In this document: positions 1,314 to 53,910 of the stretch, piece by piece
Numbering within the stretch: the stretch's first letter is position 1
Layout of the letters: each line of letters begins with the position of its first letter
Origin: an uncultured Bacilli bacterium
GTDB taxonomy: Bacteria; Bacillota_I; Bacilli_A; RFN20; CAG-826
Direction of reading: 5' to 3'
Length of the DNA: 64,000 bases
NCBI GenBank assembly: GCA_944327845.1
Contig: CALVHN010000004.1
Coordinates: 22,836-86,835, forward strand
Made by a program: the position numbers and the translations under genes
Notes under the pieces: generated by a model
The model's input: only the letters and a program-made list of their open reading frames with translations
The model's database searches: none
Told to the model about the DNA's origin: nothing

Positions 1314-3326
<2,013 letters not shown>

Positions 3327-3348
3327 CAATGTTTTTAGGAGGAAAGAG

Positions 3349-3642: not shown

Positions 3643-3643
3643 T

Positions 3644-5116: not shown

Positions 5117-5127
5117 GGGGATTTAGA

Positions 5128-6552: not shown

Positions 6553-6556
6553 GTTA

Positions 6557-6934
6557 ATGGCTAAGATACAAATTAAATATATTACAAGAGACAATAACGA
6601 AGTTAAAAACTTTCGTAATTCATTTAAAAATAATGATGAATCTTTTGATGTAACTAAATTTTTAGATGACTTTAACCATTTTGGTTTAATTATTTATAAA
6701 TACTCTAAAGTAAGTGGATTAGTTTTTTTAGAAAATGATGAAGATAAGAAATTATTAACTATAAATAAAATATTTTTTGAGTCTAAAGATGATTTAAAAG
6801 AAGTAATTGATTATTTATACTATAAATTTAATTTTTATCGTTTTATTATCGATGATAAAGAGATAAGACCAAATATTTTAAAAAATTATCAATATAAAAA
6901 AGAAAACAATAAAGTAATCATTTATTTTAACTAA
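6557..6934 (+). CDS. hypothetical protein (possibly degenerate GNAT-like fold)
   Basis: 125-aa ORF tightly packed after gatB; no diagnostic motif. Confidence 0.6.
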   Translation: MAKIQIKYITRDNNEVKNFRNSFKNNDESFDVTKFLDDFNHFGLIIYKYSKVSGLVFLENDEDKKLLTINKIFFESKDDLKEVIDYLYYKFNFYRFIIDDKEIRPNILKNYQYKKENNKVIIYFN

Positions 6935-6964
6935 ATATTTTTATATTAATTTTTACTTGTTATT

Positions 6965-6993
6965 TTGATATCAGTATAAGAAAAAATTATAAT
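6965..6993 (+). promoter_or_regulatory. sigma-A promoter for the prs operon
   Basis: TTGATA-N17-TATAAT, followed by SD AAGGAG and the prs ATG. Confidence 0.75.
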
Positions 6994-7017
6994 AGATAAA
7001 TAAAAGGAGATTTTTAA

Positions 7018-7995
7018 ATGTTAAAAGATATATTGGTTTTCTCTTTATCTTCAAATGTCAAACTTACTAATCAAGTATGTAACATTTTAGGCATTGAAAT
7101 GTCTAAAAGTGAAATACATCATTTTGCTGATGGCGAATGTTTAGCAAAATGTGACTGCGATGTAAGAGGTAAGAAAATTTATATCATTCAATCTACATCT
7201 CGTCCAGTAAATGACAGAATTATGGAAACACTCATTTTTATTGACGGGATTAAAAGAGCAAATTGTAAAGAAATTACTTTGATTACACCTTATTATGGTT
7301 ATGCTCGACAAGATCGTATCGCAAGCATGAATGAGCCAATTTCTGCTCGTCTTGTTGCTGATTTATTTACTTCAGTTGGTGTAAGTAGAGTTATTACAGT
7401 AGAGCTTCATACTCCTCAAATTCAAGGATTTTTTGGCGTCCCTGTCGATAATTGTTCACCTTCTTACATCTTTGCAAAATATTTAAAAAAGAGATTAGCA
7501 AATACTAATGCTTTAGAAAATGGTTCAATCGCTATTGTTGCTCCAGATCATGGTGCAATGTATCGAGCAAGAGATTTAGCTAACGCTATGGGAAGTGGAA
7601 CTTCAATTGTTGTCATTGATAAAAGAAGACCTAGACCAAATGTTGCCGAAATTACTAATATTGTTGGTGATATTGATGGAAAAATTTGCGTTATGGTCGA
7701 TGATATTATTGATACAGGTGGAACTATTTTAGCTGGTGCAAAAGCTTTACATGATAAAGGAGCAAAAGAAGTTTATATTTGTTGTACTCATGCTTTATTT
7801 AATGGTGATGCTTTATCTAAATTTGAAAAAGCAGATTATGTAACAGAATGTATTGTCACTGATACAATCGAACATCCTGAATTTGAAAATAACGCACGTA
7901 TTAAAGTAGTTTCAATTGCTGATATGCTTGCTAATGTTATTAAATCTCATGAATCTCATGAAAAAATAAAAGATCGTTACGTTAGATTCCATTAA
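7018..7995 (+). CDS. prs: ribose-phosphate pyrophosphokinase (PRPP synthetase)
   Basis: FADGE, PYYGYARQDR, ELH..QIQGFF, DKRRP and the PRT motif VDDIIDTGGT. Confidence 0.95.
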   Translation: MLKDILVFSLSSNVKLTNQVCNILGIEMSKSEIHHFADGECLAKCDCDVRGKKIYIIQSTSRPVNDRIMETLIFIDGIKRANCKEITLITPYYGYARQDRIASMNEPISARLVADLFTSVGVSRVITVELHTPQIQGFFGVPVDNCSPSYIFAKYLKKRLANTNALENGSIAIVAPDHGAMYRARDLANAMGSGTSIVVIDKRRPRPNVAEITNIVGDIDGKICVMVDDIIDTGGTILAGAKALHDKGAKEVYICCTHALFNGDALSKFEKADYVTECIVTDTIEHPEFENNARIKVVSIADMLANVIKSHESHEKIKDRYVRFH

Positions 7996-7999
7996 TTTT

Positions 8000-8878
8000 A
8001 TGTTTTTAGAAAATGATTTTTTAAAAATTGAAGTTACCACTAAAGGTGGTAGCTTCACTTCTATTTTTGATAAAACAAAAAATGAAGAATTACTTTATCA
8101 AATTAATAAAGATTCTTGGCAAGGACAAGATATCTTTATTTTTCCATTTATTGCTCGACTCAAGGATGGATATTATCTCAATTTAAATAAAAAGTATGAG
8201 CTTAAAAATCATGGTTTAATTCGTTATATGGAAGGGGTTATTGAATCTTTAAGTAAGGATAAATTAACAATAACTTTTGAATCAAATGAAGAAACATTAG
8301 CTCGTTATCCATTTAAATTTAAAGCTTCAATTACTTATCAAATCATTCAAAAAACTATTGAAATCTCATATAAAATATTAAATCTTAATGAAAATGAGAT
8401 GCCTTTTATGTTAGGTGCTCATCCTGCTTTTAGATTGCCTGGAAAGTTATTAGATAATGAATTTAATATTGATGGAAATTATCTTATTTTTAATAATAAA
8501 GAAAATATTTCTCGAATTAGACAGGATGATAGCTTTTCTTTTTGCATTGATGAAGAACCTGATTTTATTAAAGGAAGTAGATTAGATTTATCTAAGAAAC
8601 TATTTTCAAAAATAGATACAATTATTTTAAAAGCAGATGACTTTAACCAGGTTTTACTTAATAAAACTAATGGTTCTAAATTAAATATTAAAATTGGAAA
8701 CGCTCCTTATGTTGCTTTATGGAGTGATGGATTAAAGGGTGATTTAATATGTATTGAACCTTGGTTTGGTTTGCCTGATTATTTAGAACCAGAAAGAGAA
8801 ATAATAAAGAAAAAAGCAATTAATATTTTAGAATCCTACAAATCATTTAATTATAAATATATTATTGAGGTTAATTAA
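8000..8878 (+). CDS. aldose 1-epimerase family protein (LacX/GalM-like)
   Basis: W.GQ..FIFP, HGLIR, YPFKF, GAHPAF and ICIEPW motifs. Confidence 0.88.
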   Translation: MFLENDFLKIEVTTKGGSFTSIFDKTKNEELLYQINKDSWQGQDIFIFPFIARLKDGYYLNLNKKYELKNHGLIRYMEGVIESLSKDKLTITFESNEETLARYPFKFKASITYQIIQKTIEISYKILNLNENEMPFMLGAHPAFRLPGKLLDNEFNIDGNYLIFNNKENISRIRQDDSFSFCIDEEPDFIKGSRLDLSKKLFSKIDTIILKADDFNQVLLNKTNGSKLNIKIGNAPYVALWSDGLKGDLICIEPWFGLPDYLEPEREIIKKKAINILESYKSFNYKYIIEVN

Positions 8879-8880
8879 TA

Positions 8881-9285
8881 ATGATTACTTTAACTAATAT
8901 GTGTTTGATTATTAATGATAAAAATGAAATATTATTTCAAGATCGTTTAAAAAAAGATTGGCCTGGATTAAATTTACCAGGAGGACATGTTGAAGTTAAT
9001 GAATCAATTACAGATTCAGTAATTAGAGAAATTAAAGAAGAAACAAACTTAACTTTAATTGATTTAGAATTTGTTAATTATTTTGAATGGATTAATACTA
9101 AAACATCTAACAGAGAAATTGTTTTTCTATTCAAATCTAATAACTTTAAAGGTGAAATCATCAACTCTTTAGAAGGAAAATTATATTGGTTAAAAATTGA
9201 AGATTTAAAAGATAAAACTTTATCTCTCGACCTTGATAAAATTTTAAAATTGTACGGATTTGATATAAAATCCCTGCAAAACTAA
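8881..9285 (+). CDS. NUDIX hydrolase (MutT/MutX-like)
   Basis: Nudix box GGHVEVNESITDSVIREIKEETNL; LTNMC...QDR...WPG N-terminus. Confidence 0.9.
   Translation: MITLTNMCLIINDKNEILFQDRLKKDWPGLNLPGGHVEVNESITDSVIREIKEETNLTLIDLEFVNYFEWINTKTSNREIVFLFKSNNFKGEIINSLEGKLYWLKIEDLKDKTLSLDLDKILKLYGFDIKSLQN
9267..9280 (-). repeat. near copy of dispersed motif TTWGCAAGGHTTTT
   Basis: Reverse complement reads TTTGCAGGGATTTT (one mismatch), at the 3' end of the nudix gene. Confidence 0.35.
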
Positions 9286-9313
9286 TATATTTTACAAAAA
9301 TAGGAGGTTTAAA

Positions 9314-10618
9314 ATGGCAAAAAGTCGAAATAATTATATCTTTAGTAAAAAATGTTTATTAATTATCCTTTATTTATTTTATATAAATAATGTTAATTAT
9401 AATGATATTATCTTTCGTTCTTTTGGATTTCATTTTCCTCCAAGTTGTAATTATAAAATTATTGTTAATTCTTTAAAAAATCATACTCATAAATATGCTG
9501 TTAGAATATTTCATTCTTTAAAAGAAGCTGACATTGAAGATTTAGATGTTATGGGAAATATTAATGTTTTAAAAGTTCCTAATATTCATAAAATCACAAA
9601 AATTTACTCCCCAAAACAAGCAATAAATATTTACTTTGATGAAGTAAAATTTATTTCGGAAGGTTTTATTGAAGGAAAGTTTTTTAAATATGAGTTAGAT
9701 GAAACATCAGATTCTTTATTTAAAGATGATTTATTGCATTATTTAAGTAATGATTCAAAAAAATATCGTTCAAAAGACGATGACTCTTTCTTATTATGGC
9801 TTTTAAAGTTATATACTTCTAGACTTTCTACTGACTTAGTATTAGGTGCTGGGATTAATTGTGACTATGGTGCAAAAGATTGGAAAAGCCTGATTACAAC
9901 ATTAAATTCAGATTTTTATAAAAACAATAATCGTGCTCTTAATGAAACTAAACATTATGTTGGAGAAGAGTTATTTGTCTCATCAAAAGTCTTAACTACA
10001 AATGGCTTTGATGTTTATAAATCTTTAAATACTGAACTTTATTTATTTAAAGAAGCTAAGTCTTTTAATGATCAAGATTCTACTTTATATCGTTGTGTCG
10101 ATTATATTGCTAGACATCAAGGAACTAACGTTATTACTTATAATTACGACACTAATCTTGAATATTTATTAAGAAAAAGAAATTTACTATATTCAACAGT
10201 TTATGATGAAAATTCTTTTTTAATTAAAGGAAGTTACTGTAATATTTTTCATGTTCATGGATTACTTCCATATAATAAATATAATGAATCAAGATATACT
10301 GATTCTTTGATTTTTTCAGAAAGTGAATATTTTTATTTATATAATAATCCTTATACATGGAATATTTCTAAGCAACTTCACGATTTTACCTTTAATACAT
10401 GTATTTTTATTGGAATATCTTTAACTGATCCTAATATGAAAAGGTTATTAGAACTTTCTAAAAATCCACTAAAATTCAACTTTATCTTCTTAAAAAAAGA
10501 AAAAGATTACTTAGATTCAACTTTTAAAGACTTAACAAATTACTATTTTACTTATGATTTAATTCCTTTATGGATTGATGATTATCCTGATATTTCAAAT
10601 TGGTTAGATTGTATTTAA
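9314..10618 (+). CDS. SIR2-like (SIR2_2) domain protein with uncharacterised N-terminal region
   Basis: LVLGAGI...DW, ITYNYD, FHVHG, LIFSESEY and FIGISLTDPNMKRLL. SD AGGAGG at 9302-9307. Confidence 0.85.
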   Translation: MAKSRNNYIFSKKCLLIILYLFYINNVNYNDIIFRSFGFHFPPSCNYKIIVNSLKNHTHKYAVRIFHSLKEADIEDLDVMGNINVLKVPNIHKITKIYSPKQAINIYFDEVKFISEGFIEGKFFKYELDETSDSLFKDDLLHYLSNDSKKYRSKDDDSFLLWLLKLYTSRLSTDLVLGAGINCDYGAKDWKSLITTLNSDFYKNNNRALNETKHYVGEELFVSSKVLTTNGFDVYKSLNTELYLFKEAKSFNDQDSTLYRCVDYIARHQGTNVITYNYDTNLEYLLRKRNLLYSTVYDENSFLIKGSYCNIFHVHGLLPYNKYNESRYTDSLIFSESEYFYLYNNPYTWNISKQLHDFTFNTCIFIGISLTDPNMKRLLELSKNPLKFNFIFLKKEKDYLDSTFKDLTNYYFTYDLIPLWIDDYPDISNWLDCI

Positions 10619-10757: not shown

Positions 10758-13394
10758 ATGAAAAAGATTATTAAGATGTTAGGGTTAGCTTTACTTGGAT
10801 TAAGCGCAAGTAGTTTAGTGGTCGGTTGTGGACCAACTGAAAGTTATACAAATGATGATGTTAAATCAATTGCTATTAATGAAAAAACCTTTAATAACAA
10901 TTGGGATTTTACTTTGAATCAAACTGTCAATTATTCGTCTTTGCAAATTGATCTTTTAGATTCAAGCGATAAAGTTCTTGATACATTAAGTTATACTGAA
11001 AATAAAAATAGTATTACTTACACTGAAATTGATACATCTAAATTAGCAACTGGATTAGAATTTACTGTTACTTATACTGATAGCGATGGTAAGAAATTTA
11101 ATGCCACACATGAATATGATGTAGTTGAAACTAATTATATCCTTACAAACTGGGGTGCTTCTGTTGCATATTCTGAATATCAAGAATTAAAAAATGCTGC
11201 CTTAGATAAACAAGAAAATTTATTAACAAATGGGGAATTAGATTATTCAAAAATTAAAACTAATCATGAAGCTTTAGTTGGCGGATCAAATATTAAATCA
11301 GATGGCAAATTTTATGTTGCAAATCATAATGCAGTTAGATTAAGTCCACAAGTTTATGGCTTAAGTGCTGAAGATTTAACTAAGCCTGATGTTTCACCTG
11401 TTCCAATTAATGAATTACCTGAAGATATGACTTTAACTATTTCAAGTCAATCAGCAAAAGAAAATCTTGATGTTGAAGATTATTTTGATGAAGGTGGCCT
11501 TGAAAAAGCTTTAAATACAGGATTAGTTGATTTTAAAGATGATTTAACTGGTCTTGAAACTGATGTTACATTAACTTTCTCTTGTTCATTAGGTTCAAGT
11601 TTTCCTTCTATTTCATTAGATGTAACTATAGTTGATGGATGGAACATTACTGATGCAAAAGAATTAGTTTTATTTGATAATGCAAAATCAACATCTTATC
11701 ATGGATATTCAAGTGAATTATGCCAAAGCTATGTTGATTTAAAGAACGAAGTTTTAGGAACAACTAATGCTACATCAACTACTTCATTTGAAAACTTTGT
11801 TTTATTTAACAATGTTTCAATCGGAGCTGATGATTTACCAACAGGTTTAATTTGGTCAAAAGATGATGAAGAATCTACAAATTATTTAAATGGTTCTTTA
11901 AAAGATTGGCATTTTATTTATGAACATAATGTTGGTAAAGAATGGGATAATTTAGAATCGGATTCATTTAATTTTTATGGAAACTATAACCAATTAAGCT
12001 TAGGAGATGATTTCCCTTGGGTTTTAAGTGAAAGAAGTGATTATGGTGGACATCAAAATGACGAAGAAAAACCTACTAAAATTGATACTCATACAACTTT
12101 ATTTGGTAGCGACCAAGATGATTTCACTCAAAATCAAGATTATCAATATAATTTTGTTGATTTTTCTGCAATTGGAAATCAAGGTGTTGCTGAAAATCAA
12201 TTAGTCGATATTAACGGAACTCCAGAAAATGAAGATGATGATGTTGTTGGTGGTGGAGTTTTATTTGGAAAATTCAGAAGAGATTTAAATTATAATAACT
12301 GCAATATCAATAGTTTCTTTACAGTTAATGTCACTCAAGGTGAAACTAGTGTGAATAATATTAGTAATGAATATCAAATCGCAATTAATGTTAATGATTC
12401 TAAAATTAGTAACTGCTATAGTTCAATGTTTTTTAACTATGGTGAAAGTGACATTTATGTTAATAGATCGATTTTAACTGAAGCTGGTGGGCCTTTAGTT
12501 ATCAACCAAGCTATTCCATACAATGATCCAAATTCTGGATTCCAAGATGTTGACCCTTCTGATATTCAAGGAACAAACTTTTTTGCAGATGATACTTCTA
12601 TTTTATTAAATGTTGTTACTGGTCAAGGTGGATGGTTTGATATTTATGGTGCATCTTCTTCAATTGCTATGATTAGACAAATTTCTGATGGAGCTTTCAA
12701 AAAAGAAAAATATACTTTATTCACAGATAGAGGAGATGGTGAAACTGGTTTGAATTTAGTTGGTATTTCTATGTGCATTCACATGGAATCAGCTGGTGCT
12801 TTAAAACCTGGTATGCATTCTCGTATTGCAATTGGTGGAAGAGATTATATTAATTATGGTGAAGGTGGAGAAGATCAACAAAATATTCAAAAAGCTCTTC
12901 TTGCTTTAAGTGGTGGAGATATGACTCAACTTCCAACTTTAGTTAATTTATTAACAAATACTCCATACGGAAGCCAATTATTATTGAATTTTGCTTCTTC
13001 TTTAGGTGGACAATTTGCTGCAGCTGCCCAATTACCTTTATTTACAACTTATGATGCTAGTGGAAATAGAGTAATTAGTTCTTTACAAGTTACTGATCCA
13101 TCTAACTTAGAAAATTCATCATTAACTACTTTAGATTATTATTTAAATTTAGCTATGGGAAATCAAACTTCTCCTTCAATTCCTGATAATTTTGGAAATC
13201 TTAATGCAAATGGTAGTAATTATATTGGAGCTTATGTTCAATTAGCTGGTGCAGCAACAAATAACTTATCTACATATAATGTTTCTCCTCGAATTGACCA
13301 AACTCAACTTATTACTCGACTTGCTCAATATCTTAAAACTTATAAAGGATCAACTTCATATGGAGTTGTTATGGAGCTTTTCGACTTAGAGTAA
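10758..13394 (+). CDS. large surface lipoprotein (Ig-like N-terminus, probable beta-helix region)
   Basis: Signal peptide with lipobox LVVG-C; Asn/Asp/Ser-rich beta-strand repeats (NNCNINS, NDSKISNCYS, NRSILTEAGG). Confidence 0.75.
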   Translation: MKKIIKMLGLALLGLSASSLVVGCGPTESYTNDDVKSIAINEKTFNNNWDFTLNQTVNYSSLQIDLLDSSDKVLDTLSYTENKNSITYTEIDTSKLATGLEFTVTYTDSDGKKFNATHEYDVVETNYILTNWGASVAYSEYQELKNAALDKQENLLTNGELDYSKIKTNHEALVGGSNIKSDGKFYVANHNAVRLSPQVYGLSAEDLTKPDVSPVPINELPEDMTLTISSQSAKENLDVEDYFDEGGLEKALNTGLVDFKDDLTGLETDVTLTFSCSLGSSFPSISLDVTIVDGWNITDAKELVLFDNAKSTSYHGYSSELCQSYVDLKNEVLGTTNATSTTSFENFVLFNNVSIGADDLPTGLIWSKDDEESTNYLNGSLKDWHFIYEHNVGKEWDNLESDSFNFYGNYNQLSLGDDFPWVLSERSDYGGHQNDEEKPTKIDTHTTLFGSDQDDFTQNQDYQYNFVDFSAIGNQGVAENQLVDINGTPENEDDDVVGGGVLFGKFRRDLNYNNCNINSFFTVNVTQGETSVNNISNEYQIAINVNDSKISNCYSSMFFNYGESDIYVNRSILTEAGGPLVINQAIPYNDPNSGFQDVDPSDIQGTNFFADDTSILLNVVTGQGGWFDIYGASSSIAMIRQISDGAFKKEKYTLFTDRGDGETGLNLVGISMCIHMESAGALKPGMHSRIAIGGRDYINYGEGGEDQQNIQKALLALSGGDMTQLPTLVNLLTNTPYGSQLLLNFASSLGGQFAAAAQLPLFTTYDASGNRVISSLQVTDPSNLENSSLTTLDYYLNLAMGNQTSPSIPDNFGNLNANGSNYIGAYVQLAGAATNNLSTYNVSPRIDQTQLITRLAQYLKTYKGSTSYGVVMELFDLE

Positions 13395-13404
13395 TATTAT
13401 TTAA

Positions 13405-15816
13405 ATGAATTTTTTTAAACAATTATTAAATCTCCCTACATTAATTATTGCTATAGTAGCACTTGTTGCTACTATAGCATTTTATATTGCTTTTCCAAAT
13501 TTAATTGGTGTTTATTCAACAGTTTTTTTAATTTTATTAATATTATTTCTTTTCCTTTTATTTGTTCCAAATTTAATTAAGGATAATGAAGGTGAAAATA
13601 AAATCTCTAAATTTACTTTTATTAATAAAATTAAGGAATATTTTTCAAATAAAGAGAATAAAATTGCTTTAGTTAGACAAATTTTTGCTCTTATTTTATT
13701 TTTCATTTTCTTAACTCGCTTCTTTTTAAATCATGATTATTTAGAAAGTGTGGTTAGTATGGAAAGCGATATTTTATCTCCTGTTGAGATTGTTTTTTCT
13801 ACATTCTTAAATCAATGGTGGATTGGATCAATTATTCTTATTTTAATAAATGAATTTGTTAAAAGTGAGATATTTGAAACGCTTGTTAAATTTATTTCTA
13901 CTCCAATTTTAATCTTATCATTTTTCTTGTTATTTTTAATTATACCAGGGATTTGCGGGGATATTTCTTTAGAAACACTAGATCCTAGAGCATATTTAAT
14001 GGGAGCAGAACTTGGAATTTCTCTTGCTTTTGTTGCCTCTATCTGGTTTAAAAATCATTCATTTAAATTAACAAAGGAGTTAGGAATATCCTTAGGACTT
14101 GGTTATTTTCTTTTAATAATTGCTAATTTTAGTGGATATATTCCTAAAATATTTTTTGGTACAAGTATTGGTGAATTACCTCTTCCTTTAGATTTAAATT
14201 GGACACATCGTGTTTATATTTATATTTTGATTTTATTACCTACTTTATATTTTGTTTTACTTTATCGATATGATTATAAACATCGTCGATATTTTTTAAC
14301 TTATATTTCAATATGTGTTTTATTTTCTTATTTATGTTTAAGAAGATACGAAATTTTTGAAAGCCCAAGAAGCTTACAATTACATCTTTGTAATTTGGCT
14401 ATGTTTATCATTCCAATTACTTTAGTATTTAAAACAACAAAAGTTTTTTACTTTACAATGTTTATTAATGTAATTGGTGCAATTCTTGCTTTCTTAATGC
14501 CAAATTATAATGAAGGTTTAGGTATATTTGATGTATCGGTTATTGAATTCTTTATTAACCATTTATATGCTGCATTTATGCCAATATTGATTGTTTTACT
14601 TGGTGTTTATGAACGACCTAAGATGAAATATTTTATTTATTCAATGGTTGGATTTTTAATTTATTATTTATTTATCTTAGTTTGGAATACATATTTTGGT
14701 ACAGACTATTTCTTTATTAATTCTAACTTTGTTGCTGATAAGCTTGGTGATTGGGCAGAAGATATCTTTAATATTGAAGCCTCATTTGAAATATTTGGAA
14801 AAACATTAACTTTTCATCCGGTTTATCAAATTATCTTCTTTGTTGTTTATGTTATCTTTGCTTTCATCATGTGGTACGTTTATGAGTTATTATTTAAAAT
14901 AGTTGATAATTTAACTTTACTTGTTGAGAAAAATAAAATTGTAAAAAAGAAAAATAATGAATTTATTTTATATTTAAAATCTGTGCGAGGTAAAAGTATG
15001 AAAGAAATTAGAAAAGAAGATTTAAAAATTGATTATGATGAGCTTGAAGCTAATTTAAAAATTGAACATTTAAATAAGCGATATGGTAATGCTAAAAAAG
15101 CAGCGGTAGAAGATTTTTCCTTAACTCTTGAAGGTGGAAAAATATATGGTTTCTTAGGTAAAAATGGTGCTGGTAAATCAACAATTATTAAATCTATTGT
15201 TGGTATGCATACTTTTAATAGCGGTAAAATTACAGTTTGTGGTTTTGATATTAATCATCAACCTGTTGAAGCTAAAAGCCTAATTGGTTTTGTTCCAGAT
15301 CATTATGCTTTATATGAAAATTTAACTGGTAGACAATATATCAATTATATTGCTGATTTATATAATGTTTCAAAAAAAGATCGTGAAGAAAGATTAAAAG
15401 ATTTATTACCTCGTCTTGAACTTGAAGATAAGATTGATAAACAAATTAAAACTTATTCTCATGGTATGAAACAAAAAATTACAATTATTGGTGCTTTAAT
15501 TCATAATCCAAAGATTTGGATTTTAGATGAACCTATGACTGGTGTTGATCCTAATTCGATTTTTCAAATTAAAGAATGTATGAGAGAACATGCTAAAAAA
15601 GGTAATATTGTTTTCTTCTCATCTCACTTAATTGATGTTGTTTCTAACTTATGTGATGAAGTTATTATGATTAAACATGGTGATTTCATTTTAAGAACTT
15701 CTCTTGAAGAATTAAAACAAAATAATGTGGATTTAGAATGGTTATTCTTAGAAAAAACCAAGGATGATGAAGATATCAAAGACAATAATCTTGAAGTAAA
15801 AGGAGCTAATAATTAA
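13405..15816 (+). CDS. YwaF/TMEM164-like integral membrane domain fused to ABC transporter ATPase
   Basis: About 510 aa multi-TM region containing LQLHLCN (C329), FFINH (H386) and TDYFFI. C-terminal NBD with Walker A GKNGAGKST, signature YSHGMKQK, Walker B IWILDE and H-loop SSH. Confidence 0.85.
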   Translation: MNFFKQLLNLPTLIIAIVALVATIAFYIAFPNLIGVYSTVFLILLILFLFLLFVPNLIKDNEGENKISKFTFINKIKEYFSNKENKIALVRQIFALILFFIFLTRFFLNHDYLESVVSMESDILSPVEIVFSTFLNQWWIGSIILILINEFVKSEIFETLVKFISTPILILSFFLLFLIIPGICGDISLETLDPRAYLMGAELGISLAFVASIWFKNHSFKLTKELGISLGLGYFLLIIANFSGYIPKIFFGTSIGELPLPLDLNWTHRVYIYILILLPTLYFVLLYRYDYKHRRYFLTYISICVLFSYLCLRRYEIFESPRSLQLHLCNLAMFIIPITLVFKTTKVFYFTMFINVIGAILAFLMPNYNEGLGIFDVSVIEFFINHLYAAFMPILIVLLGVYERPKMKYFIYSMVGFLIYYLFILVWNTYFGTDYFFINSNFVADKLGDWAEDIFNIEASFEIFGKTLTFHPVYQIIFFVVYVIFAFIMWYVYELLFKIVDNLTLLVEKNKIVKKKNNEFILYLKSVRGKSMKEIRKEDLKIDYDELEANLKIEHLNKRYGNAKKAAVEDFSLTLEGGKIYGFLGKNGAGKSTIIKSIVGMHTFNSGKITVCGFDINHQPVEAKSLIGFVPDHYALYENLTGRQYINYIADLYNVSKKDREERLKDLLPRLELEDKIDKQIKTYSHGMKQKITIIGALIHNPKIWILDEPMTGVDPNSIFQIKECMREHAKKGNIVFFSSHLIDVVSNLCDEVIMIKHGDFILRTSLEELKQNNVDLEWLFLEKTKDDEDIKDNNLEVKGANN

Positions 15817-15820
15817 CTTT

Positions 15821-17530
15821 ATGGAAACTAAATCTATAAAGAAAAAAATGTTTGATAAAGATTATCTTAAAGAAAGATATGGCTTTAATTTTGCTCACTT
15901 TTTAACTCTGGTTAAAATGCTTTTGCAAGATAAATTAAAGATATCTTTTAAAGCTAATAAAAAACAATCAATTATTAAGATTATATCTTTTGTTGTTGGT
16001 TTTATTGTTTTAACAGCGGCTAGCTGGCTTTTATATTATATTGTTCAACTTTTACACTTATTTTCTGTTTTAAGTTATATTCCTTTAACTGTTCCTTCAC
16101 TTATTTCAACAGTTATATTTGTTTTAGCTTTTTTAGGAGCAATTTTTGGTTTAACTAGAACTTTATATTATAGTAATGATAATCGATTGATGATTACATA
16201 TCCTTGTAATGGTAATACAATCTTTTTAGCGAGGTTATTTGTTTATTTTGTAAATGAAGTTATCCGAAATTCAGTAATTCAAATTCCTTTGTTTTTAGGC
16301 TATATGATTGTTATGAATTTTCCTTTATATATGGTTATATGGCTAATAATTGGAATTGTTTTAGTTACTTTTGTTGAAGTATTACTCGCAAGTTTAATTT
16401 CTATTCCAGTATATTATGCCAATCGTTTTTTAGAAAAATTTTCATTAATAAAGTCATTTATAAGTTTATTTATTATTTTTATAATTGTTGGTGGAATATC
16501 TTATATTGTTTATCTTATTCCTGAAAGTATTGATATTTTTACTAATTGGGGACCATATTTTAGAAGAATTCAAGCTTTTTTAAATGGCTATGGAACTTAT
16601 TGTTCTCCATTTTATTTTCTTACTCAATTTTTAATTGGGAATTTAAATGGTTTTGTTGTTCAACCTTTTACTTTAACAACTTTATATGTTGGCTTAGTTT
16701 TAATTGGCTCTATTGCTTTATTGTTTGGTTTATGTTTATTAGTTGTTAATCCAATATATTTTAAACTTGCTAGTGAATCTTTTGAATTTGAAAGTGATAC
16801 TACCTTTATTTCAAAAAGAGTTAAGAAAAGAAGATATGTTAATTCTCAAATTCATAAAGAATTACTCCTTTTCTTAAAAGATCCAAATTATTCTACTTCA
16901 ATTATTGGTTCGTTTATTTTCTTACCTATTATTCTTACTTTAATGAATAAATTATATGGTGCAATGAATGTTAATCATTTTGGAGATTATATTGTTTCTT
17001 GTGTAAATGTTTTAGTAATTTTAATTATTGCTTTAAATTCTAATTCTGTTGTTGCTAAATCTTATTCTGATGAAGGAAATGCTTTTAAATATAATTTAGT
17101 TTATCCTAAAAATAGTTATTTCCTTTTGTTTTCAAAAAATATTATTCCATTTAGTATTGGTGCAGTTTCAATTTTAATTTCTTGTTGTTTATTTGGATTT
17201 TTAAAAGATTATGGTGCAGTTGAAGTAACTTTAATGTTTTTTGGAATAATTTTTATTTATTTAGCTCATATGTTATTTGCTTCTCAACTTGATTTTTGTT
17301 CGATTACATCGCAATTTTCTCGTTCTTCAGCCCAAACTAAAGCTCAAAGAGTTATTTCAATTACTGCGTTTGTTATTCCTATAATTTTAGTTTTACTTTT
17401 CTTCTTATATCTTAATGACAATATTTTAACGGCCTATATTAAATTATTAGTTCTTGGAATTATTATCTTTGCTATTTCCTTATGGATTTATATTTTAAGG
17501 GTAAAATTAGTTTATCAGGAGGGAAATTAA
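15821..17530 (+). CDS. ABC exporter-type permease (ABC-2-like, about 12-14 TM)
   Basis: Two multi-TM halves with YYSNDNRLMITYP...IFLARL and KELLLFLKD...SDEG..F motifs; directly after the ATPase gene. Confidence 0.8.
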   Translation: METKSIKKKMFDKDYLKERYGFNFAHFLTLVKMLLQDKLKISFKANKKQSIIKIISFVVGFIVLTAASWLLYYIVQLLHLFSVLSYIPLTVPSLISTVIFVLAFLGAIFGLTRTLYYSNDNRLMITYPCNGNTIFLARLFVYFVNEVIRNSVIQIPLFLGYMIVMNFPLYMVIWLIIGIVLVTFVEVLLASLISIPVYYANRFLEKFSLIKSFISLFIIFIIVGGISYIVYLIPESIDIFTNWGPYFRRIQAFLNGYGTYCSPFYFLTQFLIGNLNGFVVQPFTLTTLYVGLVLIGSIALLFGLCLLVVNPIYFKLASESFEFESDTTFISKRVKKRRYVNSQIHKELLLFLKDPNYSTSIIGSFIFLPIILTLMNKLYGAMNVNHFGDYIVSCVNVLVILIIALNSNSVVAKSYSDEGNAFKYNLVYPKNSYFLLFSKNIIPFSIGAVSILISCCLFGFLKDYGAVEVTLMFFGIIFIYLAHMLFASQLDFCSITSQFSRSSAQTKAQRVISITAFVIPIILVLLFFLYLNDNILTAYIKLLVLGIIIFAISLWIYILRVKLVYQEGN

Positions 17531-17532
17531 TT

Positions 17533-18018
17533 ATGAAGAAAAGTGTTATATTATTAATTTCTTGTATTTGTATAATTTCGATTGTTATTGTTGCTTTTTT
17601 TGGAGTTAGTGCACAAAACATTTCACCTATTATTTATATTACCTCTGTTGAAATTTTAGATATGGATGGAAATGAAATTCCTGAAAATGTGACCAATCCT
17701 GATGCAAAATCATTTAATATTACATTTAATCCTACTTTTGAAAATGAAGGTGTTCAATATATGGAATATGTTTTTTCAACAAAAATTCTTCCTGATAACG
17801 CAACGAATAATAGTATTTTATATTCATGTGATTCAACTGATGGAACTGTTGAATGTTTAAATGCTCAAGGCGGTGGATTTGTTTTTAGAGAAATTAATAA
17901 TCCTAGTGTTCCTTTTTATGTTACCAGAGTTAATTGTCGTTCTAATGATGGCGGAAGACAAGTTAATGACACTATATTGTTATTAGTTGATTATCGTGAA
18001 TATCTTGACATTATTTAA
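17533..18018 (+). CDS. small membrane-anchored Ig-like protein
   Basis: N-terminal TM helix, then IYITSVEI...ILPDNATNNSILY (Big_2-like). Start moved to ATG 17533 behind SD AGGAGG. Confidence 0.7.
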   Translation: MKKSVILLISCICIISIVIVAFFGVSAQNISPIIYITSVEILDMDGNEIPENVTNPDAKSFNITFNPTFENEGVQYMEYVFSTKILPDNATNNSILYSCDSTDGTVECLNAQGGGFVFREINNPSVPFYVTRVNCRSNDGGRQVNDTILLLVDYREYLDII

Positions 18019-18173: not shown

Positions 18174-18821
18174 ATGTCAAAGAACCTTTCAAAGAATCAA
18201 TTAAGAAGATTACCTGAGTATCTAACTTTATTAAGAAACTTGAAGCAAAATGGCATCAAGTATATTTCTTGTCAAACAATTGCAGATTGTTTAAATCTTA
18301 ATAAAGAACTTGTTAGAAAAGATATTGCAGCTGTTTCTTCATATGATGGTGTTCCTAATAAAGGAAGGGACATTGTTTTATTGATCAAAGATTTTGAAAA
18401 AATTCTTGGATATGATTCTTCACACAACGCAGTATTAGTTGGAGTTGGAAGTTTAGGCAAAGCCCTTTTATGTTATGATGGCTTTTCTACTTATGGATTA
18501 AAAATTGTTGGAGCTTTTGATAGAAATCCTGAATTAATTGGAAGAACTATTAATGACATCCATATTTATGATTCAAGAAGAATGTTTGGAACTTTATCAA
18601 CTTTGAACGCTAATATTGGAATTATTTGTGTACCATCGGGCTTTGCTCAAGAAGTTGCAAATGATTTAGTTGATAGTGGAATTGAAGCAATTTGGAATTT
18701 TGCTCCAACAAAAATTGAGGTTAAAAAAGATGTAATTTTATCCAATATGGATATGGCAACATCTTTAGCTGTTTTATCTCATCAATTGTATTTAAAAAAG
18801 AACAAAAGGAAGGAGAATTAA
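18174..18821 (+). CDS. rex: redox-sensing transcriptional repressor Rex
   Basis: RRLPEY, winged-HTH VRKDI, Rossmann VGVGSLGKAL, AQEVA.DL...GIEAIWNFAP. Confidence 0.93.
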   Translation: MSKNLSKNQLRRLPEYLTLLRNLKQNGIKYISCQTIADCLNLNKELVRKDIAAVSSYDGVPNKGRDIVLLIKDFEKILGYDSSHNAVLVGVGSLGKALLCYDGFSTYGLKIVGAFDRNPELIGRTINDIHIYDSRRMFGTLSTLNANIGIICVPSGFAQEVANDLVDSGIEAIWNFAPTKIEVKKDVILSNMDMATSLAVLSHQLYLKKNKRKEN

Positions 18822-21437
18822 ATGGAAGAGTATACTTATCCAAAAGAAGTCGTTACTGAAATTGATGCTTTAGTCGATAAAGCAACAGTTTGCTTAAATG
18901 AATTTAGAAATTTAAATCAAGAACAAGTTGATTATATTGTTGCTAAAGTTTCTTGTGCTGTCTTAGATCATCACGAATATCTTGCACGTTTAGCACTTGA
19001 AGAAACAAAAAGAGGTGTTTTTGAAGATAAATGTACTAAAAACCTTTTTGCTTGTGAATATGTCGTTAACAATATGAGACATTTAAAAACTTGTGGAATT
19101 ATTTCTGAAGATCCTGTTACTGGAATTACAGAAGTTGCAGATCCTTTAGGAGTAATTGCTGGTGTTACTCCTGTTACTAATCCAACAAGTACAGTTATTT
19201 TTAAATGTTTAATTTGTTTAAAAACAAGAAATCCAATTATTTTTGGTTTTCATCCAAATGCTCAAAAATGCTGTGTTGAAACTGCAAAAATTATTGAAGA
19301 AGCTGCTGTTAAAGCTGGTGCACCTAAAAATTGTGTTCAATATATTTCAAATCCATCCCTTGATGCAACTAAGTATTTAATGCATCATCCAGGAGTTGCT
19401 TCAATTTTAGCTACTGGTGGTAATTCAATGGTAAGAGAAGCATATAGTTGTGGAAAACCTGCGCTTGGAGTTGGTGCTGGAAATGTTCCTGCATATGTTG
19501 AAAAAACATGTAATGTTGCTCAAGCAGCAAATGATATTTTAATGTCAAAAGCATTTGATAATGGTATGGTTTGTGCTTCTGAGCAAGTTGCAATCGTTGA
19601 TAAAGAAGTATATGACGAATTCTTAAAAGATTTAGAAAAATATGGTGCATATATTTGTAATGATGAAGAAAAGAAACTTCTTGAAAAATATATGTTTAGA
19701 CCTACAAAAGATGGAAAATCCACTGCTTTATTCTCAGGTCTTGTTGGTCATCCAGCATATGAAATTGCACATGAAGCAGGATTTGAAGTTCCTGAAAAAA
19801 CCCCTATTTTAGTCGCTAAAATTTCAAAAATTGGAATGGAAGAACCTTTATCAAGAGAAAAACTTTCACCAGTACTAGGTATTTTAAAAGTTAAATCTAA
19901 TGAAGAAGGTTTAAATGCTGCTGAACAAATGGTTGAGCTTGGTGGATTAGGACATTCTGCTTGTATTCATTCAACAAATGAAGAATTAGTTAAACAATTT
20001 GGTGAAAAATTAAAAGCTTGCAGAATCATTTGGAATTCTCCTACATCTTTCGGTGGAATCGGTAATATTTATAATTCCTTTATACCATCTATGACTTTAG
20101 GTTGTGGTTCATATGGTCATAACTCAGTTAGTGGAAACGTTGGTGCTATTAACTTAATTAATATTAAGAAGATTGGAAAAAGGAGAAATAATATGCAATG
20201 GTTTAAACTTCCAAGCAAGATTTACTTTGAAAGAAATTCAATTCAATATTTAATTGATTGTAAAAATGTAGAAAAAGTATTTATTGTTACTGATAAATCT
20301 ATGGTTCAACTTGGATTTATGAATAAGATTGTCGATCAATTAAAATTAAGAAGAAACGAAGTTAGTATCCAATTATTTACTGATGTTGAACCAGATCCAG
20401 ATATTAAGACAGTTAGAGCTGGTGCTAAATTAATGGATTCATTTAAACCTGATACAATCATCGCTTTAGGTGGTGGTTCGGTTATGGATGCTGCAAAAGG
20501 TATGTGGTTATTCTATGAAAATCCTGAAGTTAATTTTGATGATTTAAAACAAAAATTCATGGATATTAGAAAAAGAGCATTCAGATTCCCTCAATTAGGT
20601 AGAAAAACAAAATTAATTTGTATTCCTACAACTAGTGGAACAGGTAGTGAAGTTACTCCATTTGCTGTCATTTCTGATCATGAAAATCAAAAGAAATATC
20701 CTTTAACTGATTATTCTTTAACTCCAACAATTGCTATTGTTGATCCAGAATTTACTACAAACTTACCTCCTCAAGTTACTGCAGATACTGGAATGGATGT
20801 TTTATGTCACGCAGTTGAAGCTTATGTTTCAATGTTAGCAAGCGACTTTACAGATGGTTTAGCAAAACAAGCAATTGAACTTGTTTTTGGATATTTAGAA
20901 AGAGCTGTAAAAGATGGAAAACATGATTTAGAAGCTAGAGAAAAGATTCATAATGCAGCTACAATTGCTGGTATGGCTTTTGCTAATGCTTTCTTAGGTA
21001 TGTGTCACTCTATGGCTCATAAAGTTGGTGGTTTCTTTGCACTTCCTCATGGAAGAATTATTGGAATCTTATTACCTTATGTTATTAGATATAACGGACA
21101 AATTCCTCAAAAATTAGGAACATGGCCAAAATATAAAGTTTATGATGCAGATAAACGTTATGCTAAACTTGCTCATCTTTTAGGTTTAAAAGCTAAAAAT
21201 GATGCAGAAGGAGTTGAAGCATTTGCTAATGCTGTCTATGATTTAAGTATGAGAATCGGTGAAAAACCATCATTCAAAGATTGGGGAATCGATGAAAAAG
21301 AATTTATGGATCATGTTGAAGAAATTGCATATCTTGCTTATGAAGATCAATGTACTCCAGCAAATCCAAGAATTCCTCTTGTTCAAGATATGATTCAAAT
21401 CTTAAAAGACGCATATTACGGAAATTTTAAAAAATAA
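18822..21437 (+). CDS. adhE: bifunctional acetaldehyde-CoA/alcohol dehydrogenase
   Basis: ALDH part: GVFEDK, TPVTNPTST, GMVCASEQ, LGCGSYG. Linker RRNNMQWF. Fe-ADH part: GGGS, HAVE, HSMAH, PHG. Confidence 0.98.
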   Translation: MEEYTYPKEVVTEIDALVDKATVCLNEFRNLNQEQVDYIVAKVSCAVLDHHEYLARLALEETKRGVFEDKCTKNLFACEYVVNNMRHLKTCGIISEDPVTGITEVADPLGVIAGVTPVTNPTSTVIFKCLICLKTRNPIIFGFHPNAQKCCVETAKIIEEAAVKAGAPKNCVQYISNPSLDATKYLMHHPGVASILATGGNSMVREAYSCGKPALGVGAGNVPAYVEKTCNVAQAANDILMSKAFDNGMVCASEQVAIVDKEVYDEFLKDLEKYGAYICNDEEKKLLEKYMFRPTKDGKSTALFSGLVGHPAYEIAHEAGFEVPEKTPILVAKISKIGMEEPLSREKLSPVLGILKVKSNEEGLNAAEQMVELGGLGHSACIHSTNEELVKQFGEKLKACRIIWNSPTSFGGIGNIYNSFIPSMTLGCGSYGHNSVSGNVGAINLINIKKIGKRRNNMQWFKLPSKIYFERNSIQYLIDCKNVEKVFIVTDKSMVQLGFMNKIVDQLKLRRNEVSIQLFTDVEPDPDIKTVRAGAKLMDSFKPDTIIALGGGSVMDAAKGMWLFYENPEVNFDDLKQKFMDIRKRAFRFPQLGRKTKLICIPTTSGTGSEVTPFAVISDHENQKKYPLTDYSLTPTIAIVDPEFTTNLPPQVTADTGMDVLCHAVEAYVSMLASDFTDGLAKQAIELVFGYLERAVKDGKHDLEAREKIHNAATIAGMAFANAFLGMCHSMAHKVGGFFALPHGRIIGILLPYVIRYNGQIPQKLGTWPKYKVYDADKRYAKLAHLLGLKAKNDAEGVEAFANAVYDLSMRIGEKPSFKDWGIDEKEFMDHVEEIAYLAYEDQCTPANPRIPLVQDMIQILKDAYYGNFKK

Positions 21438-21666: not shown

Positions 21667-23502
21667 ATGGCACTTAATGGAATGGAGTACGATCCTTATG
21701 ATTTATATTATAAGGGTGGATTAAAAAATCAATTTAGAGAAAATACAACTAATTTTTATGAAAAATTAGCTAAAGAAGCTAACATTGATAAAGAAAGAAA
21801 TAAGGAAATAGTTAATCAAGTAAATAAATTACAAAAGAAAATAGATGATGTTAGTGGAAAATTAGGTATTTTTAAGTTTTTAAAAGTTTTATTAATTATT
21901 CTTATTATTGGAAGTGCAGTTTCAATAATTATTGGAATATTTGCTTTTTATAATGAGGCTAAAAATTCCTTATTAGTAGGTGGATTATGTTTAGGAATAG
22001 GAATTGCAGTTTTAATTATCTCACTTTTACTTTTATTCTTAGTTGTAAATAAAAAATGTAAAAATTTAAATAATTCTCTTCAAAAATTAGAAGATAAAAA
22101 AAATAGTGCAATAAATGAAGGTAGAATGCAATTATTACCTCTTTTAGGGCGTTTTTCTTTTAAAGATTTTATTAATTTAGTTAACGGAATGAATATCAAT
22201 ATTAAATTAGATGATAAAGTTGATCAAAAGAAACTTTTACTTTTATCAAACTTATTTCATTATAATTCAAATTTAAATATTGATGAATGTGTCTTTGACT
22301 GTATATCAGGAAATATTGATGATAATCCATTTTTAAGAGTTCAATTATTTAATCGTAATATCATTAATAAAACTTATACCGGAACTAGAGTTATAACTTG
22401 GACTGAAACTTATCGAGATGGTCAAGGTAACTTACAAGTAAGAACGGAAAGTGATACACTCGTTGCTCATTACACTGCTCCAGCCGCAGTATTTTATAAA
22501 AACTCTTTTGTAATTTATGGAAATGAAGCTGCTCCTAATTTATCTTTTTTAAGAACTCCATCTGGATTAGAGTTAATTCATGATAAAAAAGATGTTGAAA
22601 AAATAATAAATAAAAATTATAAAAAATTAAAGAGTTTAAGTGAAAAAACCTCGCTAAAAGGCAATAAAATTACTCTTTTAGCTAATGAAGATTTTGAAGG
22701 ATTATTTAACTGCAACGATAGAGACAATGAAGTAGAATATCGTTTACTTTTCACTCCTCTTGCTCAACAAAATTTACTTGAAGTAATAACTTCAGCTACT
22801 CCATATGGAGATGATTTTTCATTTAAAAAGATGAAAAAATTAAACATTGTTAGTGCAAAACATTCTCAACATTTAATTAATTTTGATTATCAATCTGAAT
22901 TATTCTTCTTTGAATATGATTATGAAAGATTGACTACAAATTATATTAATAAAATGTGTGAAGCTTTTGAAAGCTTATATTTTGATTTAATTCCTTTACT
23001 TTGTATTCCTTTATATCAAATGAGTGAACCTGAAGTTTATGATCCAATTCAAAATTCAAGAAACGTTTCAGATTATGAAGCTGAAAGCTTAGTTAATCAC
23101 TCTTCACCTGAATTATTTAGAAATCCTAATGCTAATACTGAACAAATTTTGAAGGTTAAATATCTTGATTCTATCGATGGGAGCGATATTTTTAGCGTTA
23201 ATTCCCAATCTTATAATAAGGTGAGAAGAGTTGAACAAATTCCTTGTTTATGTAGAAATGGACAAACTTATTTAGTTCCTGTTGTTTGGTATGAATTCAT
23301 CCCATTTAATAGAGATACTAAAATCGCTATTCGTAACATAAATGATAATAATCTCGCTTCAAATAATAATCAAAACAATAATCAAAATATTTATCGCTAT
23401 AAAAACTTTGCAGCATATTATTTAAATCAAAATAATTTAAATGAAGAAGAAAATAAATTATTTAAAGAAACAAGCGATAAATCATATACTTTTTATAAAT
23501 AA
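21667..23502 (+). CDS. MAG1210-like membrane protein (LemA-associated)
   Basis: Two N-terminal TMs flanked by coiled coils; GNEAAPNLSF.R, EVEYRLLFTPLAQQN, GDDFSF.K and VPV.WYEF; adjacent to lemA as in Mollicutes. Confidence 0.7.
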   Translation: MALNGMEYDPYDLYYKGGLKNQFRENTTNFYEKLAKEANIDKERNKEIVNQVNKLQKKIDDVSGKLGIFKFLKVLLIILIIGSAVSIIIGIFAFYNEAKNSLLVGGLCLGIGIAVLIISLLLLFLVVNKKCKNLNNSLQKLEDKKNSAINEGRMQLLPLLGRFSFKDFINLVNGMNINIKLDDKVDQKKLLLLSNLFHYNSNLNIDECVFDCISGNIDDNPFLRVQLFNRNIINKTYTGTRVITWTETYRDGQGNLQVRTESDTLVAHYTAPAAVFYKNSFVIYGNEAAPNLSFLRTPSGLELIHDKKDVEKIINKNYKKLKSLSEKTSLKGNKITLLANEDFEGLFNCNDRDNEVEYRLLFTPLAQQNLLEVITSATPYGDDFSFKKMKKLNIVSAKHSQHLINFDYQSELFFFEYDYERLTTNYINKMCEAFESLYFDLIPLLCIPLYQMSEPEVYDPIQNSRNVSDYEAESLVNHSSPELFRNPNANTEQILKVKYLDSIDGSDIFSVNSQSYNKVRRVEQIPCLCRNGQTYLVPVVWYEFIPFNRDTKIAIRNINDNNLASNNNQNNNQNIYRYKNFAAYYLNQNNLNEEENKLFKETSDKSYTFYK

Positions 23503-50943: not shown

Positions 50944-50950
50944 TTAAAAA

Positions 50951-50964
50951 TTAGCAAGGTTTTT
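50951..50964 (+). repeat. dispersed motif TTWGCAAGGHTTTT
   Basis: TTAGCAAGGTTTTT, 7 nt after the stop at 50943. Confidence 0.5.
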
Positions 50965-51022
50965 TATAAAAAATACTAAATTTAAAAAGATAAATTTCAA
51001 TATTAAAATTAATAAAGAAAAT

Positions 51023-51059: not shown

Positions 51060-51074
51060 ACTTTAATTATTCTT

Positions 51075-53894: not shown

Positions 53895-53910
53895 AAAAAT
53901 CCTCCTAAAA

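Follow-up and report, generated by a model that had tools for sequence, protein, structure and literature searches.

Why would a membrane domain of the YwaF/TMEM164 type be joined in frame to the ATPase of a transporter of the ATP-binding cassette (ABC) type, and be encoded beside a large surface lipoprotein? The question is raised by four genes at positions 10758 to 18018 of a 64,000-nucleotide (nt) stretch of DNA from an uncultured Bacilli bacterium (GenBank assembly GCA_944327845.1, contig CALVHN010000004.1, positions 22,836 to 86,835 of the forward strand; this whole stretch is referred to below as the window). It touches on two long-standing questions. The outer face of the membrane has neither ATP nor coenzyme A (CoA), and how acyl groups are supplied there is one of them; the other is lipoprotein modification in wall-less or Lnt-less Firmicutes, lipoproteins being molecules that innate immunity reads through TLR2. 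To our knowledge, bacterial YwaF/TMEM164-type proteins have no known function.

We describe here the gene products, their conservation and the readings that they permit. The four genes, which we call the cassette, encode an ABC exporter to which a putative membrane enzyme is fused, along with two surface proteins of its own. Our preferred reading of its function, which we hold tentatively and would be unsurprised to see fail, is that the cassette is an ATP-driven lipid flippase or extractor that would feed outward-facing acyl transfer onto its own lipoprotein or onto that protein's anchor.

Four tightly packed genes encode the cassette

All four genes lie on the forward strand. The first (10758..13394) is an open reading frame (ORF) of 878 amino acids (aa) for a large surface lipoprotein; the second (13405..15816, 803 aa) encodes the fusion protein, a TMEM164-like domain with an ABC ATPase; the third (15821..17530, 569 aa) encodes a tandem type V ABC permease; and the fourth (17533..18018, 161 aa from an MKK start) encodes a small membrane-anchored protein. 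Neighbouring genes are separated by 10, 4 and 2 nt, the third figure presuming the MKK start at 17533; an alternative ATG at 17482 would give a protein of 178 aa and overlap the permease gene. The G+C content of the window is about 26%, and ORF calls are the same under translation tables 11 and 4, so there is no internal TGA in the four genes.

An original prediction, made from the nucleotide letters and their ORF translations, had described these four genes with gaps of 10, 4 and 2 nt, had picked out LQLHLC (C329) and FFINH (H386) in the 803-aa protein, and had proposed that the TMEM164-like domain continues in frame into a complete ABC nucleotide-binding domain. The ORF calls agree with the first statement and both motifs are read in the translation; the in-frame junction is borne out by Pfam matches on either side of it and by the full set of ATPase motifs described below.

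Scans for regulatory signals in the cassette region were uninformative, with 54 promoter-like sites against 55.4 expected and one terminator-like site against 1.9 expected. The sole terminator-like match (13449-13479, forward strand), a 13-pair inverted repeat with a T-rich tail, lies inside the sequence coding for the first membrane helix of the fusion and is probably meaningless. In one gut metatranscriptome run, short contigs 90-99% alike to the window cover positions 11124-11629 and 12258-13259 of the lipoprotein gene and 15039-15277 of the ATPase region; none spans two genes, their strand is not readable and DNA may occur in an RNA library, and they do not establish transcription of the cassette; stretches that no contig covers are uninformative.

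The fused membrane domain belongs to the TMEM164/YwaF family

Residues 265-497 of the fusion (14197..14895, forward strand) form a TMEM164/YwaF-type acyltransferase-like core, as judged by its Pfam family, its fold and a Cys/His pair. The Pfam TMEM164 family (PF14808) matches residues 265-489 with an E-value of 2.1e-21 and 76.9 bits (cut-off 25), covering positions 3-216 of the 217 in the profile. We modelled residues 1-548 with AlphaFold2, using 30 homologues as input (predicted local distance difference test, pLDDT, 86.4; predicted template modelling score, pTM, 0.84). VIA-align superposed this model on human TMEM164 (9lw1_A) with a Z of 11.2 and a root-mean-square deviation of 3.2, aligning 183 of 258 residues; model positions 290-501 fell on positions 85-280 of the chain, and the runner-up chain reached a Z of 5.2. 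In a fold search that does not depend on Foldseek, 9lw1_A was the only one of 48,161 representative chains with a Z of at least 8, the next standing at 6.3. Foldseek itself paired the model with 9lw1_A at a probability of 0.99 but an E-value of 0.42. Sequence searches of the PDB, with the N-terminal profile or with residues 255-500 alone, returned no TMEM164 chain, and the human protein was found by fold comparison only.

The putative nucleophile is C329 (codon 14389-14391, forward strand), in the LQLHLC motif, and the putative base is H386 (codon 14560-14562, forward strand), in the FFINH motif. Both are invariant, together with H327 and N385, in 25/25 homologues with 41-67% identity. In a wider set of fused homologues the Cys is kept in 28/30 and the His in 28/30, and, across the full-length protein, the pair and the motif around it (P-L-H-L-C-N-T-A-M, N-H) rank with the best-conserved columns. 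In human TMEM164, C123 is the acyl-accepting nucleophile and acts with H181, the former on helix 2 and the latter on helix 4 of a six-helix core, at a spacing of 58; this protein is placed with AIG1/ADTRP, GPC1, YwaF and YpjA in the ATGY superfamily (bioRxiv 10.1101/2022.07.06.498872; PMC12830759). The spacing of C329 and H386 is 57. When residue numbers are shifted by 205, the linear offset given by the structural alignment (chain position 85 facing model position 290), H386 coincides with H181, and C329 lies no more than one residue from C123. Judged by this offset and the spacing only, C329/H386 would be equivalent to human C123/H181.

We conclude from hidden Markov model, fold and catalytic pair that the fused domain falls within the TMEM164/YwaF family. 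The family assignment of the original prediction is thereby upheld, as is its claim that the Cys-to-His spacing resembles that of the human enzyme.

The fusion adds a membrane extension and an intact ATPase

Upstream of the core, residues 1-264 (13405..14196, forward strand) form an extension of about eight membrane helices in the AlphaFold2 model. Its fold matches were uninformative, consisting of generic four-helix bundles only, with no solved chain above a Z of 6.3 when the extension was compared as part of the 1-548 model. We considered residues 70-262 as a degenerate second copy of the core and rejected this (hhalign probability 0.4%). Residues 1-548, searched in full against 1.84 billion representative proteins, gave only 192 clusters at an E-value of 0.001 or lower; these are mainly fused proteins of 700-830 aa or unfused ones of 450-500 aa, both with the same extension and core.

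Downstream, residues 551-803 (15055..15816, forward strand) are an ABC nucleotide-binding domain of the DrrA/GldA (ABC-2) type, identified by Pfam (ABC_tran, residues 569-711, E 1.4e-26) and by its motifs. Walker A (GKNGAGKS), the signature (YSHGMKQ), Walker B (ILDEP, with E709 as the catalytic Glu) and the H-loop SSH with H741 are all intact and conserved.

Since the ABC ATPase must be cytoplasmic, the last helix of the core runs from outside to inside. Counting back from there, the fusion would have 14 helices with both termini inside. Under this model the inside loops hold 13 K/R and 6 D/E in 58 residues and the outside loops 5 K/R and 20 D/E in 124 residues, a distribution that agrees with the positive-inside rule. 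C329 is then the fourth and H386 the tenth residue from the outer end of its own helix, which would place the putative Cys/His active site in the outer leaflet.

A complete tandem permease accompanies the fusion

The AlphaFold2 model of the permease (pLDDT 85.7) has its best Foldseek matches in chains of the Rv1217c-1218c pump, and its best 50 fold matches are all type V ABC chains. VIA-align aligned it with 8k1o_A at a Z of 12.8, with 431 residues aligned across positions 21-567. The C-terminal half (~335-569) gave a Z of 15.9 with NosY (338-564), 14.7 with ABCA1 and 14.6 with ABCG2. In Pfam the window copy has no match; PF16949 (ABC_tran_2) is matched by 19/33 homologues, at best with an E-value of 3.5e-16. 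From the model, we take the permease to be a complete tandem (two-half) type V ABC membrane domain.

A permease of this kind supplies both transport halves, so the fused membrane domain is not needed as a channel; the suspicion in the original prediction that it is probably not the transport channel was well placed. We conclude that the transporter, a type V ABC exporter, follows the layout of Rv1217c-1218c, and that the fused 14-helix domain is an add-on to it. The tandem layout also implies that each permease would engage two fusion subunits.

These likenesses bear on a plainer explanation, in which the cassette is an ordinary efflux or resistance pump, an ABC-2 exporter of a drug, bacteriocin or metabolite whose ATPase merely has an extra membrane domain. 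The ATPase is nearest to DrrA-type models, homologues are annotated as 'ABC-2 type transport system ATP-binding protein', and the permease alignment with the rifampicin-resistance pump Rv1217c-1218c (PMC11406275) is full-length. However, every NCBIfam match lies under the cut-off of its family: the two best for the ATPase are drrA (202.6 bits; cut-off 312.45) and GldA (197.4 bits; cut-off 402.6), neither of which is reached. An ordinary pump would also leave unexplained why the catalytic pair is conserved and why the transporter is constantly accompanied by a small anchored protein and a large lipoprotein. We consider this explanation very unlikely.

Two surface partners are encoded beside the transporter

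The 878-aa protein begins MKKIIKMLGLALLGLSASSLVVGC, with a signal peptide and the lipobox LVVGC ending in Cys24, and Lgt is encoded in the genome (match E 1.7e-41); by these features it is a predicted lipoprotein. It consists of an immunoglobulin (Ig)-like N-terminal region (~30-140) and a conserved core (~140-720), about 560 residues of which are shared among relatives. It has no Pfam or NCBIfam family; a weak Pfam Latrotoxin_C match (17.7 bits; cut-off 25) was taken as chance. A profile search against the PDB matched the N-terminal Ig-like region only (best 2l7y_A, E 1.4e-4, profile positions 30-111), and Atlas look-ups, with scores of 0.88 or lower, gave Big_2, HL_N-beta, Glug, Peptidase_M26_N and BACON as leads only.

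The core is single-copy in the genome, where 11 other matches cover the signal and Ig part only, and a wide database search returned just 10 homologues, none of them named. An iterative search within the set of loci described below found 30/33 large neighbours of fused loci to be homologous over the core, with E-values that refer to a tiny database and coverage that is long. The N-terminus of these homologues varies, with Big_3, Big_2 or Flg_new repeats.

The small protein shows, in an alignment of its homologues, a conserved N-terminal anchor and a P-x-N-A-T/S motif. The original prediction had labelled it an Ig protein. This label finds no support in the window copy, which has no Pfam match, and some in the family, 4/32 homologues matching Big_2 (PF02368; best E 2.2e-5); the small protein probably carries a Big_2-like Ig domain. 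Prediction of its complex with the permease gave an interface score (ipSAE) of 0.33 (runs 0.36, 0.30 and 0.33) against 0.01 for the best control, on a scale where the mark is reached by 116/157 solved complexes and 2/215 mismatched pairs, and where passes at 0.60 or lower comprise 18 of those 157 solved complexes plus both passing mismatches. The runs share at least 92% of contacts, and the pLDDT of the partner is at least 70. These predictions hint weakly that the small protein may contact the permease.

The cassette recurs in other genomes

Among 2,539 database matches, the best 120 all have PF14808 and PF00005 together. We took 80 loci from genome assemblies, 39 of which have a fused ORF of more than 600 aa. 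A permease follows the fusion directly in 33/34 fused loci with at least 1,700 nt downstream (32 by ORF call, plus L033, where overlapping ORFs caused it to be missed; there is none at L024). Where 2,400 nt or more lie downstream, the next ORF is small and N-terminally anchored in 31/31 fused loci. In 29/29 loci with enough DNA there is also an adjoining large ORF, which in most cases has a lipobox; it stands downstream in 26 and upstream in 3. An upstream lipoprotein gene is peculiar to the window and its nearest relatives (L002, L003 and L005), and is found also at L012, where the fusion gene is split. In a split form of the system, at L063, a 487-aa membrane protein is followed by a separate ATPase and a permease, then by an anchored protein of 311 aa and a lipoprotein of 1,537 aa, and the gene set is retained.

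The loci come from metagenome-assembled genomes (MAGs) labelled, roughly and by their records, Bacilli, Clostridia/Christensenellaceae, Acholeplasmataceae and Izemoplasmatales. In one family (f19), fused-size frames occur in 16/18 genomes with a match. An arrangement that recurs in 39 fused loci of other genomes is more than chance, and the conservation of fusion and operon in homologues, on which the original prediction had staked its proposal, is evident from these counts.

The ABC part also occurs without the acyltransferase-like domain. A paralogous module on another contig of the window's genome (L082; G000:C2:41000-53000) has ORFs at 2672-4072, 4069-4881, 4881-6494, 6497-9031 and 9052-10161. 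It encodes a 466-aa soluble protein with a terminal Cys-rich motif, an unfused ATPase that shares 40% identity with the ATPase of the fusion, a homologous permease of 537 aa (E 4.4e-54), an 844-aa membrane-anchored surface protein and a 369-aa protein of Flg_new repeats; a TMEM164 domain is absent from the module. Unfused ATPase-permease pairs occur in Clostridia and Bacillus too. Together with this module, they indicate that the ABC part exists independently with surface proteins and that the acyltransferase-like domain is an addition.

The 844-aa protein was considered as a relative of the cassette lipoprotein, and no relation was detectable (hhalign probability 1.4%); a 25-column motif that it shares with the start of the lipoprotein core (VV-D/E-G-x-N-V-Y...DL) is not significant. 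Neither it nor the 466-aa protein has detectable relatives among the neighbours of the other loci. Separately, unfused ATPase relatives in MAGs labelled Clostridia (L042, L044, L054, L056, L058, L069 and L080) often stand in another recurring order, which begins with a soluble ORF of ~430 aa and continues with the ATPase, a 550-600-aa permease and a ~140-aa ORF; this may represent a sister cassette. Upstream of some loci of this type (L050, L055 and L058), proteins exceeding 2,000 aa are encoded.

A proposed mechanism of lipid movement and acyl transfer

In the reading that we prefer, the four gene products would form one envelope machine. One tandem type V permease would bind two 803-aa subunits through their ATPase domains, and each copy of the fusion would add its 14-helix domain, the last six helices of which would be the TMEM164/YwaF-type acyl-transfer enzyme. 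ATP hydrolysis would drive the permease to flip or lift a lipid, either an acyl donor or a protein's lipid anchor, to the outer leaflet. Cys329 would accept the acyl group as a thioester and hand it on to an acceptor at the outer face, the likeliest acceptor or partner being the large lipoprotein dedicated to the system, which the small Ig-like protein would anchor in place. We infer the topology, the stoichiometry and the coupling of flipping to transfer, and we guess at the identity of the acyl donor and acceptor.

In favour of this reading we count the TMEM164 family and fold of the enzyme domain, its conserved Cys/His pair and predicted outer-leaflet site, the intact ATPase motifs, the complete permease, the recurrence of the gene set, the single-copy lipoprotein core, and a genome with Lgt in which Lnt, Lit and LhaT gave no match. 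The reading takes Bacillus LhaT, of the same ATGY superfamily, as its model. Type V ABC transporters are the class that moves lipid-linked molecules. By joining a type V transporter, a predicted outward-facing ATGY enzyme and one lipoprotein, the cassette contains what the logic of LhaT needs, and we tentatively read it as a flip-and-transfer machine for its own lipoprotein or that protein's anchor. In a more specific and previously undescribed form of such a machine, a lipid-linked donor would be flipped, and the fused ATGY enzyme would give one lipoprotein a special acylation or a remodelled anchor. In this specific form we regard the proposal as unlikely.

Several observations weigh against acyl transfer onto the lipoprotein. 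The NCBIfam model for a 'TMEM164-related integral membrane acyltransferase' (TIGR02206) scores 56 bits (E 3.3e-15), under its cut-off of 75, and the fused domain is related to that subfamily model but outside it. The metal-site residues of human TMEM164 are not evidently retained: by the linear offset, which is not an alignment, N330 stands in the place of H124 and F382 in that of Y177, and E106 has no clear equivalent. Nothing is conserved among the lipoproteins in the residues after the lipobox Cys. Type V exporters include drug pumps, such as Rv1217c-1218c (PMC11406275). The spread of the cassette is patchy: fused-size open frames occur in 35/300 genomes of an even sample of the window's class, and the cassette is found in 8/27 genomes of the window's family and in 0/2 other genomes of its genus. 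The cassette is accessory, not housekeeping, and with such a spread it cannot be the general lipoprotein-maturation enzyme of these bacteria. Finally, two loci in MAGs labelled Acholeplasmataceae have lost the pair. L036 (2683-4815) has Ser at the nucleophile position and lacks the His, and L040 (1580-3772) lacks both residues; these may be pseudo-enzyme versions of the cassette. Despite its lost His, L036 keeps the whole cassette, with permease, small protein and a 924-aa lipoprotein, so the TMEM164-like domain may also, or only, be structural.

The loss of the pair at these two loci would fit a mechanotransmission account, in which ATP drives the conformation of the surface lipoprotein (an enzyme or adhesin) with no transport, in the way that NosDFY, FtsEX and YbbAP-TesA act on their outer partners, and the TMEM164-like domain is a scaffold or lipid sensor. 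Two extracytoplasmic partners are always encoded beside the transporter, the paralogous module pairs an ABC part with a surface protein, and the permease half aligns best with NosY of NosDFY(L), within about 1 Z unit of ABCA and ABCG chains. A precedent for an ABC transporter working with an outer hydrolase is YbbAP-TesA (PMC12646458). However, the place of the Cys/His pair and its motif among the most conserved columns favours catalysis, and, NosDFY aside, the named mechanotransmitters (FtsEX and YbbAP-TesA) are type VII, not type V. We think it quite unlikely that this account is correct.

Fatty-acid metabolism of the carrier genomes

Acyl transfer onto a lipoprotein, as we prefer to read the cassette, has a further competitor in lipid scavenging or remodelling. 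Here the enzyme would strip acyl chains off host or other exogenous phospholipids and pass them to the bacterium's own lysolipids or to water, the ABC part would move lipids and the lipoprotein would capture their source. The human enzyme is a transacylase that works without CoA and carries acyl groups from phospholipid to lysophospholipid (bioRxiv 10.1101/2022.07.06.498872), the putative active site would, by the topology given above, face the outer leaflet, and the permease has the lipid and sterol transporters ABCA1, ABCG1 and ABCG5/8 among its fold neighbours. The genome of the window (1.135 Mb, 96.85% complete) contains no ketoacyl synthase match and holds three fatty-acid binding proteins of the DegV/FakB type and PlsY; gene content of this kind suggests that the bacterium probably depends on outside fatty acids. 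In the same assembly, searches for three known enzymes of lipoprotein N-modification, Lnt, Lit and LhaT/DUF1405 (PF07187), gave no match; the staphylococcal LnsA/LnsB were not searched for.

Other genomes speak against scavenging. A strong ketoacyl synthase match (PF00109, E <1e-20) is present in 9/35 carrier genomes, which include relatives and are not independent of one another, and one more has a weak, partial match; over the whole class sample PF00109 is matched in 136/301 genomes. One family (f21) has the cassette in 6/15 genomes and PF00109 in 14/15, and many synthase-less genomes lack the cassette, as in family f9, with 0/34 for both, and in the window's own genus. The tie between the cassette and loss of fatty-acid synthesis that the original prediction had proposed to look for is not a strict one, given the nine carriers with a synthase. 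No lipid-binding family is matched on the large partner protein, and scavenging leaves unexplained the constant company of a single dedicated lipoprotein. We rate it as improbable.

Neighbouring genes in the window

Directly upstream of the cassette (9314-10618, forward strand) and outside its conserved part lies the gene for a 434-aa protein with a SIR2_2 domain (E 6.6e-12); domains of this type occur in anti-phage defence proteins. Downstream (18174-21437, forward strand) are genes for the redox-sensing repressor Rex and then the bifunctional acetaldehyde-CoA/alcohol dehydrogenase AdhE (1373.8 bits), a classic regulator-target pair. These are followed (21667-23502, forward strand) by a gene whose 611-aa product falls in the NCBIfam 'MAG1210 family' (500 bits), named for a gene of Mycoplasmopsis agalactiae; this member is present although there is no TGA inside the ORFs checked. 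Further along, at ~50900-54000, genes switch from the forward strand (to 50943) to the reverse strand (from 51075), and cumulative GC skew peaks at ~52-54 kb. This region looks like a replication terminus or strand-switch point.

Implications

In the cassette an ATGY-type enzyme shares one polypeptide with an ATP motor and is encoded together with one lipoprotein, and so offers a compact four-gene test system. It is found in many uncultured small-genome gut Bacillota and may bear on how commensals build and present their surface. Should the more specific form of our preferred reading be true, the cassette would supply the flippase logic that is missing from the LhaT pathway, and it would give bacterial YwaF-type proteins a first function, in bacteria without Lnt, Lit or LhaT.

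Comparison with known systems

We found no such architecture in the literature. The full-text literature searched, whose coverage leaves subscription journals outside, contains no paper describing a YwaF/TMEM164-ABC fusion or the cassette. Within that literature, the statement in the original prediction that no characterised system has this architecture stands, with the qualification that partial precedents exist in LhaT and in YbbAP-TesA, the TesA component of which is an SGNH hydrolase.

In Escherichia coli, YbbAP-TesA physically couples an ABC transporter to an outer acyl (thio)esterase and has been proposed to lift hydrophobic molecules from the membrane for that enzyme (PMC12646458). It differs from the cassette in being type VII (MacB/FtsX-like) with a soluble, periplasmic and unfused enzyme, whereas the cassette is type V with a fused membrane enzyme. 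NosDFY(L) has a large extracytoplasmic partner and a lipoprotein, and no acyltransferase. It is a type V system (PDB 7o0y, 7znq), and its NosY is the best match of the C-terminal half of the permease, in effect tied with the ABCA and ABCG chains.

The transporter itself resembles Rv1217c-Rv1218c of Mycobacterium tuberculosis (PDB 8k1m-8k1p), a drug pump with a tandem permease and separate ATPase subunits (PMC11406275). Rv1217c is a type V permease of ~550 aa that aligns with the cassette permease over its full length; sequence identity is 11-12%, and the mycobacterial ATPase is without a membrane enzyme domain.

For the enzyme, the nearest solved relative is human TMEM164 (9lw1), which is of the same Pfam family and has the same six-helix core, with the Cys and His on core helices 2 and 4. 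Unlike the human protein, the bacterial fusion is extended by about eight further helices at its N-terminus and by an ABC ATPase at its C-terminus. The two also differ beside the pair, with HLCN in the fusion where human TMEM164 has N121-P122-C123-H124 (PMC12830759).

The closest likeness in working mode is to LhaT (formerly YpjA) of Bacillus subtilis, a lipoprotein heptaprenylglyceryl N-acetyltransferase that is proposed to acetylate lipoprotein N-termini at the membrane's outer face; its donor, the lipid acetyl-heptaprenylglycerol, receives its acetyl load in the cytosol and has to be brought across the membrane by a flippase that has yet to be identified (PMC12345273). LhaT is a stand-alone six-helix protein of another branch of the superfamily (DUF1405, PF07187), whereas the domain fused here matches PF14808, and it has neither a fused ATPase nor a dedicated lipoprotein gene beside it. 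What the two would share is action at the outer face on lipoproteins, with a lipid-linked donor that needs flipping (PMC12345273). By this analogy the cassette would work like LhaT, the likeness being one of working mode and not of membership.

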